Positions 46,756-47,526 of a DNA stretch of 48,138 bases are shown piece by piece. Each line of letters begins with the position of its first letter. Positions within the stretch are counted from its first letter, which is position 1. The position numbers were made by a program, and so were the translations under genes. Below the pieces are notes generated by a model. The model saw nothing but the letters and a program-made list of their open reading frames with translations. It was not told the origin of the DNA and did not search any database. The stretch comes from Escherichia phage PhiR63_2, in the sequence record PV340574.1, one strand, 5' to 3'.

Positions 46756-47526
46756 GTGATTGATACAATGAAAACCTTAAGTGGGAAAGAGTTTAGGAAA
46801 TTATTTAATCGTTATGAGACAGGATTCTATCTAAGTGAGTTTGAATACTTAAAGGACTTTGATCCTTTGTTTCCTGAATGCGTAGGGAAAGAATTAAAGT
46901 TGGGTTATAAACGAAAAGTTGATGTATGGTGCGAAGAGGATGCTGCGCTATATGCAGAATTTATAGCTACAAAAGAAAGGCTGAAAAGAGGCCGGTTAAT
47001 CCTAAAAATAAACCAAGTGTGGTCGCGTGTATATCCTGCTTATATTTATGCAATTGAAGAAAGAATAAATGTCAGGGCAAAGGGGAGAGAGTCATTTAAG
47101 TATGAAACTGTGCAAGAAAAACAATGTAAACTTTCCATAATGTTAGATGGTCTGAAAGACCTTGAATGTGAAATAGCTATGATTTCAAGTGAGTTTGAAA
47201 TTGAAAAACACTCTATGCACTATTTTTATATGATTTTTGATATTGAACGCTATATAAATGACTGCAGTTACTTTGTTTTTTCTGCTGCTAAAGTTGTTAA
47301 AGGCGTGATTCAATGCATTGGTTACATTGACAAAAATAACAAAGCAAGTTGCGATGAATTTTATTCAGGCAGCTATGAATGCTTGGATGATGATCAGGAA
47401 ACACTGAACTATTTAAATGAATCATGCGCAGAGGGTATAGACGCTGATAAAGATCTCATCAGGAAGAATGAGTTATTAGCCTTATCCCTGAAGGAATTGT
47501 ATCAACTTCTCGTTTCAAAAAAATAA
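46756..47526 (+). CDS. Hypothetical AT-rich orphan protein (256 aa)
   Basis: Long intact ORF in markedly AT-rich DNA between the sit cargo and attR; Cys-rich C-terminal half; no recognised family. Likely true start at the Met at 46768. Confidence 0.55.
   Translation: MIDTMKTLSGKEFRKLFNRYETGFYLSEFEYLKDFDPLFPECVGKELKLGYKRKVDVWCEEDAALYAEFIATKERLKRGRLILKINQVWSRVYPAYIYAIEERINVRAKGRESFKYETVQEKQCKLSIMLDGLKDLECEIAMISSEFEIEKHSMHYFYMIFDIERYINDCSYFVFSAAKVVKGVIQCIGYIDKNNKASCDEFYSGSYECLDDDQETLNYLNESCAEGIDADKDLIRKNELLALSLKELYQLLVSKK

Follow-up and report, generated by a model that had tools for sequence, protein, structure and literature searches.

What kind of gene lies near the right attachment site of a phage 21-type prophage, how did it come to be there, and what might its product do? 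These questions are raised by an open reading frame (ORF) at 46756-47526 on the plus strand of the 48,138-nucleotide stretch of Escherichia phage PhiR63_2 analyzed here (PV340574.1; the whole stretch is called the window), which represents a 48-kb phage 21-type lambdoid prophage in a B2 Escherichia coli strain. The gene is a genuine, conserved, horizontally mobile and lysogen-expressed moron, lodged in a cargo-exchange slot left of sib/attP that is shared with lambda. In the lysogen, its product may act as an oligomeric DNA- or partner-binding switch in regulation or mobile-element conflict, a reading to which we assign a probability of about 0.4.

The frame is open and intact, and RefSeq gives it the same limits (WP_000567449.1, "hypothetical protein"), in agreement with a preliminary description of the window that had taken it for an intact gene of 256 aa, a length that counts from a GTG at 46756. 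The start, however, needs correction. ATG at 46768, which yields 252 aa, is the likelier initiation codon, being the start used in all orthologues, in PHROG 20520 and in the annotation of phage 21; in the orthologues, it is preceded at a distance of 9-10 nt by a GGAG-like Shine-Dalgarno sequence.

A single gene moving among phages, integrative elements and islands

The gene was found in nine contexts, including the b-region slot of phages in E. coli, two different cargo slots of PFGI-1-like integrative and conjugative elements (ICEs), a CP4-57-like island with antirestriction, DUF932 and RadC genes, an Aeromonadaceae metagenome-assembled genome (MAG) in which it stands beside a type I restriction-modification (R-M), RhuM and Imm50 cluster, small islands in Citrobacter telavivensis, Klebsiella variicola and Mangrovibacter, and one metagenomic contig. 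It is solitary in all nine, and an all-against-all comparison of 22 neighboring proteins gave no match. A conserved partner gene, considered for the divergent neighbors in two Citrobacter loci, was rejected because these proteins (389 and 381 aa) are unrelated. These comparisons show that the gene moves alone among phages, ICEs and islands of Escherichia, Citrobacter, Klebsiella, Mangrovibacter and one Aeromonadaceae genome.

The proposal that the gene is a moron, i.e., a horizontally acquired accessory gene, is supported by its foreign composition, its variable presence, its transcription in lysogens independently of sit and its position in a cargo-exchange spot. Its GC content is 0.34-0.38 in every host versus 0.44-0.56 in the flanks; in the window it is 0.341, with 0.308 at third codon positions, versus 0.498 for the whole window and 0.507 for the prophage body. 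Phage 4A7 and its relatives share the sit-icd backbone and have different DNA across 46206-47605. Since this sister phage carries other DNA there, the phage can do without the gene. The right-hand boundary arm (the "-" arm, described below) and the backbone junction are the same in lambda, phage 21 and 4A7, and the cargo set against them is different in each. In 4A7 (NC_049946, locus ~3140-3640), the slot is filled by ~480 bp of other AT-rich DNA; a truncated ORF in it contains a HEPN-like RNxxxH motif (IRNKLAHG), and the same "-" arm closes the segment.

Among 5,426 complete E. coli genomes, 762 (14%) contain the gene region at an identity of at least 95%, and 761 of the 763 matching chromosome or plasmid records reach at least 99%. 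The carriers include Nissle 1917, LF82 (prophage Perceval), NC101-type strains and many extraintestinal pathogenic E. coli. Positions 46070-47990 of the window are 99.5% identical to classical phage 21 (OL657228), and the gene does not differ from CPT_21_31 of phage 21, whose annotated start is the ATG matching 46768 (252 aa), or from LF82_189 of Perceval. The view that the gene was recently acquired is contradicted by its presence in phage 21, a phage already isolated in the 1950s, and by the near identity of the 761 records. In at least six genomes (e.g., NZ_CP020545.1, 1190325-1192102), the 1-kb query is split into two pieces ~780 bp apart, with an IS1 transposase annotated between them and "hypothetical protein" listed twice; these copies look like IS1 insertions disrupting the gene or its cassette.

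Beyond E. coli, a word-indexed search of the protein database retrieved 22 clusters, all at least 63% identical, from Citrobacter, K. variicola, Mangrovibacter, one Aeromonadaceae MAG and metagenomes. A profile hidden Markov model (HMM) search over all 1.84 billion representatives returned one full-length cluster and fragments, none of them more distant. No match was obtained in Pfam or NCBIfam, and PDB HMM searches returned nothing outside the family and no MerR protein. The family entry, PHROG 20520, is of unknown function, and the phage 21 annotators, whose analysis included HHpred, left the gene hypothetical (PMC9119081). The single match in PADLOC-DB v2 is marginal (PDC-M13C, E=0.0034, 15.6 bits) and covers 25 residues (aa 5-29) inside the helix-turn-helix stretch. 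The earlier statement that no motif could be assigned thus holds for all three of Pfam, NCBIfam and PADLOC. The nine orthologues are all intact, with pairwise dN/dS values of 0.16-0.55 (about 0.2), and 80 columns of the family alignment are invariant; as judged from these alignments, this is a real protein-coding gene under purifying selection.

Transcription in lysogens is documented by published RNA-seq data of strain LF82 (PMC9928086 S1 Table), in which LF82_189 lies at 1221795-1222565, 687 bp after sitA, with the same spacing as in the window. The values for LF82_189 (PMC9928086) are log2(fpkm+5), fpkm being fragments per kilobase per million, in two replicates per condition:

Lysogeny broth (LB), stationary phase: 4.43 / 4.45
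Dulbecco's modified Eagle's medium (DMEM), 1 h: 7.34 / 7.68
DMEM, 6 h: 7.49 / 7.37
Macrophages, 1 h: 7.82 / 7.96
Macrophages, 6 h: 7.10 / 7.20

The labels MB6 (macrophages 6 h post-infection) and BLB (LB stationary phase) are defined in PMC9928086, and the labels B1 and B6 (DMEM) and MB1 were read from the S1 Table legend by inference. By these data, LF82_189 rises ~8-fold from LB to DMEM or macrophages; in LB, its value is three times the prophage median and under the fivefold moron cutoff of the authors (PMC9928086). In the same samples, sitA spans 3.7 to 10.5 and LF82_188, an ORF over the insertion sequence (IS) scar upstream of the gene, stays at 3-4.8 (PMC9928086). Because the pattern is uncoupled from sitA and LF82_188 is barely transcribed, the gene is transcribed in lysogens from its own signal, and the case considered in the preliminary description, that of a gene silent under every condition, does not apply. 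The low value in LB may reflect silencing of AT-rich DNA, for example by H-NS.

A consensus scan found no strong sigma-70 promoter upstream of the gene. At 46718-46731, a TTGT-N6-TTGT "CII binding site" was marked by the phage 21 annotators, with TATGAA 12 nt later; it occurs in the E. coli/phage 21 lineage alone, and in orthologues the first repeat reads TGGT or TAGT. This site may have arisen by chance or may have brought the gene under CII control in this lineage alone, and the annotated CII-dependent promoter was not adopted, given the loose pattern and its restriction to the E. coli lineage. The svsR small RNA (sRNA) of the related NC-SV prophage was likewise set aside as a relevant element, since it is located at cI and not at this gene.

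Predicted architecture and possible action of the product

The 252-aa product is acidic (pI 5.3) and, as had been noted before, rich in Glu (11.1%), Lys (10.3%), Tyr (7.1%) and Cys (3.6%). It has no transmembrane segment (maximum Kyte-Doolittle 19-residue score, 1.46) and is predicted to be soluble and cytoplasmic. An AlphaFold2 run on a 20-sequence alignment gave a model with a predicted local distance difference test (pLDDT) score of 92.5 and a predicted template-modeling (pTM) score of 0.84, in which a beta-alpha-alpha-beta-beta domain (residues 1-55) is followed by helices at 56-110, 115-147, 153-189 and 206-251, the first of them 55 residues long and directly adjoining the winged helix. 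In fold comparison, the N-terminal domain matched PbrR691 (5.9), the GIsul2 excisionase (5.7), RacA (5.4), a small terminase (5.3) and SoxR (5.3), followed by CbpM (5.2), a MerR regulator (5.2), CarA-N (5.2) and another MerR regulator (5.1), with BmrR, TipAL, CueR, MerR, pSK1 Par and RdfS lower in the list. In the model, residues 1-55 are a MerR/excisionase-type winged-helix fold, which is the sole fold assignment for the protein. In the bundle, Cys166, Cys183, Cys195, His151 and DDD207-209 are invariant, and Cys205 is present in at least 90% of the sequences.

We favor the explanation that, in lysogens, the protein is an oligomeric switch that acts by binding. DNA (or a partner protein) would be recognized by the winged-helix head, and the Cys-bearing bundle would serve oligomerization and possibly, in the manner of MerR-type regulators, the sensing of metal or redox state. 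Such a switch would regulate genes or interfere with competing mobile elements, and the protein would be neither membrane-acting nor an enzymatic toxin. The abortive-infection or toxin-like function proposed in the preliminary description appears to be without support in the sequence: there is no meaningful PADLOC match, no toxin or membrane domain, no effector domain (nuclease, NADase, pore or protease), no transmembrane segment, and no conserved neighbor or antitoxin in the nine contexts. The marginal PDC-M13C match comes without conserved partners, and the gene does not fall into any known defense system of PADLOC-DB v2.

Several observations weigh against the proposed switch. The presumed recognition helix (aa 22-31, SEFEYLKDFD) is acidic and basic residues are limited to the wing and to helix 1, which leaves it uncertain whether the protein binds DNA, and the same fold in CbpM binds proteins instead. 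The helical bundle matches generic bundles alone (CorA, spectrin and PhoU), a BFVD search with it gave no match, and a metal or redox site within it is a guess from the conservation pattern. Upstream of the gene, no MerR-type promoter with a 19-20 bp spacer was found, and 46380-46800 contains no palindromic operator, inverted repeats or iterons. Some E. coli strains appear to carry IS1 inside the 1-kb region, which suggests that the gene is dispensable. A literature search by accession numbers found nothing on the gene, and no phenotype of any kind has been published.

Boundaries of the cassette and the adjoining phage backbone

DNA homology across genera begins at 46656 (~110 bp before the ATG) and ends at 47601-47611 (75-85 bp past the stop codon). 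The features of the window to which this section refers are as follows:

133-1275, minus strand: integrase, intact, at the left edge of the window, at attL
43474-46069: sitDCBA, left of the gene
46405-46478, plus strand: left boundary element, consisting of the "+" arm TGTGCCAGGAGCGGAAGC and then a conserved leader ending ...GGGAGACTTACA; the same ~90-nt element precedes the gene in other genera and unrelated plasmid cargo
46478-46541, plus strand: IS scar, a remnant from the 5' end of an IS3-family orfA (..GKRYSEELKIEAVKRVVE..) that lacks a start codon and is ~90% identical to annotated IS3-family transposase genes on many plasmids
46656-46767, plus strand: conserved 5' region with presumed promoter, 5' untranslated region and Shine-Dalgarno sequence; cross-genus DNA homology begins here, at 81-89% identity
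46768-47526, plus strand: coding sequence of 252 aa (alternative GTG start at 46756, 256 aa), with a modeled MerR/Xis-like winged helix at aa 1-55 and then a four-helix bundle
47527-47611, plus strand: conserved 3' region ending in the "-" arm (47592-47611; reverse complement TGAGCGAACTGCGGACATCG); cross-genus homology stops at 47601-47611
47597-47982: phage backbone from the cassette to attR, in which a segment homologous to lambda, a sib/tI-like terminator and the AT-rich P-arm of attP are found
47649-47804: 51-aa ORF, phage 21 CPT_21_32 "putative membrane protein", overlapping the sib/tI-like terminator in the lambda-shared backbone
47983-48138 (window end), plus strand: icd' 3' fragment, the last 52 codons of isocitrate dehydrogenase (translation ILLRHMGW...SEFGDAII), on the attR side of the phage 21 integration site; an icd pseudogene in RefSeq, also in the phage 21 annotation

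In the favored explanation, the gene and the features next to it would form a self-contained mobile moron cassette of ~1.0-1.2 kb, in which a single gene with a weak promoter of its own stands between a boundary element and a second boundary arm; the cassette sits in the variable "b-region" slot of a phage 21-type prophage, left of sib/attP. The "+" arm (TGTGCCAGRAGCGGAAGTTGGAG, 46405-46427 in the window) lies upstream of the gene in six of the nine loci, and the ~90-nt element containing it ends ...GGGATACTTACA, with sequences diverging directly after TTACA. The same element precedes unrelated plasmid genes of the caspase-family, NYN-domain and HNH endonuclease types. The "-" arm (reverse complement TGAGCGAAnnGCGGACATCG; 47592-47611 in the window) is found 27-66 bp past the stop codon, again in six of nine loci. 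Phages, ICEs, plasmids and islands contain further copies of the arm motif, GC(C/G)A(G/A)nAGCGGA(A/C)(G/A)T(T/C)G, in their variable regions, and in three loci it is 30-100 times more frequent than in shuffled sequences. Seven pairs of a "-" followed by a "+" arm, exactly 57 nt apart, occur in five unrelated loci and form a REPIN-like palindromic doublet. In lambda (J02459), a "-" arm (TGAGCGAGGAGCGGAAGTTAAC) is present at ~27318-27334, exactly where homology with phage 21 resumes, and it therefore marks the right edge of the lambda b region. No Rfam family was detected in the window or the K. variicola locus, no significant RNA structure was found in the 3' region of the cassette, and a literature search with boundary-motif strings found nothing on the arm elements. 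The cassette family with arm doublets may be undescribed, as no published description of it was found.

The IS scar mentioned in the preliminary description proved to be real, with 46478-46541 matching the 5' end of IS3-family transposase genes, and the fragment also occurs in the C. telavivensis and C. werkmanii copies of the cassette. That the "+" arm is the left inverted repeat of an IS3 element was rejected, because an intact IS3 with that orfA has other inverted repeats, no intact transposase directly adjoins the arm and leader anywhere in 7.3 gigabases of plasmid sequence, and target-site duplications are lacking. The unit does have imperfect inverted arms, but no such duplication was present at the four junctions examined, and the unit does not correspond to an IS-derived mobile insertion cassette. 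Neither is it an integron gene cassette: the boundary palindrome differs from attC, and the linked recombinase is a 200-aa protein with weak XerC/XerA/invertase-type scores far under cutoffs.

This 200-aa tyrosine recombinase is represented by more than 8,000 clusters that are 80-98% identical across Gammaproteobacteria and bear generic names only. Its gene lies at 9235-9837 in locus L004, at 5385-5987 in L003 and at 4001-4603 in both L029 and L032, among the genomic contexts compared here. In K. variicola and Providencia, its terminator hairpin leads straight into a "+" arm, and in a marine contig into a truncated arm. The recombinase is, by this physical linkage only, the best candidate for moving the cassettes. 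It is often located at the end of ars clusters in ICE hotspots. On the K. pneumoniae plasmid NZ_CP110147.1, the leader element is followed at locus positions 2560-2700 by a recombinase 3' fragment with an internal stop, then by a caspase-family gene and a "-" arm at 5032-5048, a cassette of the same type of ~2.5 kb. In the CP4-57 prophage of K-12 (locus 3501-3580), one ~80-nt leader copy with 79% identity lies between a DUF905 pseudogene and yfjW, beside ars remnants. The leader element is single-copy in E. coli, being present in 1,474 of 5,426 genomes at a median of one place.

The cassettes resemble integron attC cassettes, REPIN doublets and Acinetobacter pdif modules in that they are one-gene modules bounded by imperfect palindromes that recur between unrelated cargo, and in that one arm is in physical linkage with the gene of a small tyrosine recombinase. 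They differ in having no IntI, no attC R/L boxes and no XerC/D dif core, in that the 200-aa tyrosine recombinase is not a RAYT, and in that the cargo has a presumed promoter of its own.

To the right of the cassette, the backbone segment shares 81% identity with lambda 27323-27464, a stretch to the left of attP in that phage. The sib/tI-like terminator on the minus strand (47768-47791) is a terminator-like hairpin that is annotated as a terminator in phage SfII, and the 51-aa ORF overlapping it is probably not a gene. The AT-richness noted earlier is real, but what had been described as one strongly AT-rich island of ~1.3 kb (46640-47980) consists of two separate blocks, the gene cassette (~46640-47530, GC 0.32-0.36) and the attP P-arm (~47800-47980, GC 0.35-0.36), between which lie ~270 bp of lambda-homologous phage backbone with normal GC content (0.41-0.45). 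Similarly, the gene is the last one before attR if the doubtful 51-aa ORF is left aside, but it abuts attR only loosely, since its stop codon is ~457 bp from the start of icd' at 47983, with the sib/tI-like terminator and the P-arm in between. At the other end of the window, the attL side with its intact integrase is not co-linear with Nissle 1917, in whose copy of the same prophage (locus 6643-8248) the integrase is cut off by an ISEc52 insertion, so this copy is probably locked in place.

Rival readings and biological significance

BstA-type prophage defense relies on a single lysogen-expressed gene whose product has an N-terminal KilA-N/ANT domain and an uncharacterized C-domain. A somewhat unlikely reading is that the gene studied here likewise encodes a single-gene anti-phage or superinfection-exclusion protein, whose winged helix would recognize incoming or replicating foreign DNA or a phage protein and block it; this would be a non-toxin form of the idea in the preliminary description. 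By analogy, both would be single prophage genes expressed in lysogens from a variable region, with an N-terminal DNA-binding-type domain and an uncharacterized C-domain; BstA, however, is unrelated in sequence to the present protein. Defense-flavored surroundings would fit this reading, including the type I R-M/RhuM/Imm50 neighborhood, T5orf172 and HNH neighbors with domain-level PADLOC matches, and Lamassu-like genes nearby in K. variicola, as do lysogen expression, the caspase-family, NYN and HNH genes in sister cassettes with the same boundary element, and the HEPN-like fragment in the slot of 4A7. However, no known defense family matches apart from the 25 residues of PDC-M13C at E=0.0034, none of the effector domains named above is recognizable, and the protection of NC101 by the related NC-SV prophage has been credited to an sRNA (PMC12803456). 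A dimeric MerR-like sensor-regulator, whose Cys cluster binds metal or senses oxidants and which tunes host or mobile-element promoters under host-like conditions, is unlikely. It would agree with the 55-residue helix adjoining the winged helix, as in MerR, with the invariant Cys166, Cys183 and Cys195 and the conserved acidic DDD patch, with the rise of the transcript in DMEM and macrophages, and with the Mn/Fe importer sitABCD adjoining the phage 21 gene. But sit is adjacent in E. coli alone, no target operon is kept beside the gene in the nine contexts, neither a MerR-type promoter nor a palindrome is present, and the helices of the AlphaFold2 monomer pack as an intramolecular bundle, not as an open dimerization helix. 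MerR family members (PbrR, SoxR, CueR, MerR and BmrR) have no sequence similarity to the product: the Pfam models MerR, MerR_1 and MerR-DNA-bind fail, and PF00376 and PF13411 gave no match at E<=10 with the whole protein or 17 N-domains. Unlike these regulators, the product has a 200-residue four-helix bundle at its C-terminus instead of a short effector loop or domain, an acidic putative recognition helix, and at its locus neither a cognate divergent operon nor a promoter with a 19-20 bp spacer.

It is very unlikely that the protein assists cassette mobility as a recombination directionality factor or architectural protein acting with the 200-aa recombinase on the boundary arms. The gene directly follows the recombinase in K. 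variicola and lies 4 kb from it in C. telavivensis, and the arms bounding the cassette also follow the recombinase gene; yet same-arm cassettes with unrelated cargo lack the gene, seven of the nine contexts have no recombinase nearby, phage 21 encodes its own Xis besides this gene, and 252 aa is far above the size of known directionality factors. The excisionase/AlpA proteins (HTH_17: GIsul2 Xis, RdfS and lambda Xis) are stand-alone proteins of 55-80 aa, whereas the product carries a large helical domain and has no Pfam match, including PF12728 and PF05930, so that the likeness is in fold alone. From pSK1 Par and RacA, winged-helix and coiled-coil organizers of DNA, it differs in that its C-terminal region is modeled as a folded bundle and not a disordered tail, that it resides on integrated elements needing no partition, and that centromere-like direct repeats are absent upstream, where only short, chance-level direct repeats were found, unlike in a pSK1 Par-type partition system. 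Most improbable, and already disfavored, is a decaying passenger without current function that is carried along with the IS scar. The IS3 fragment upstream, the apparent IS1 in the 1-kb region of some strains and the low expression in LB, at three times the prophage background, would be in keeping with decay; against it stand an ORF intact in nine genera or contexts with a dN/dS of about 0.2 and 80 invariant columns, a very confident AlphaFold2 model, regulated transcription and at least 99% identity in 761 records.

A further reading that we regard as quite doubtful would make the protein the prototype of a new single-gene conflict or regulatory system, in which a MerR/Xis-type winged helix fused to a Cys-gated four-helix bundle acts in the lysogen on foreign DNA or host promoters, and would also have the gene ride in a small mobile cassette family. 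This family, with REPIN-like doublets of arms GC(C/G)AGnAGCGGAAGTTG exactly 57 nt apart and possibly serviced by the ubiquitous 200-aa tyrosine recombinase, would shuffle defense-like genes (caspase-family, NYN, HNH and HEPN-like) from one lambdoid phage, ICE, plasmid or island to another, and the right boundary of the lambda b region would be among the sites involved.

In summary, a gene carried by 14% of complete E. coli genomes, clinically and probiotically important strains among them, and by the textbook phage 21 has as yet no name, no homologues outside its family and no known function. With its modeled MerR/Xis-like head, it would be a prophage moron of an architecture new for its kind, and this head provides the first concrete, testable biochemical hypothesis, namely DNA binding or Cys-dependent sensing. 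The gene adjoins the sitABCD virulence operon and is on in cell-culture medium and in macrophages; it is therefore worth testing whether it takes part in host-associated physiology or in competition between phages or mobile elements. Through the boundary arms common to the edge of the lambda b region and to unrelated plasmid cargo, single accessory genes could be passed among phages, ICEs and plasmids, a matter that concerns morons generally.

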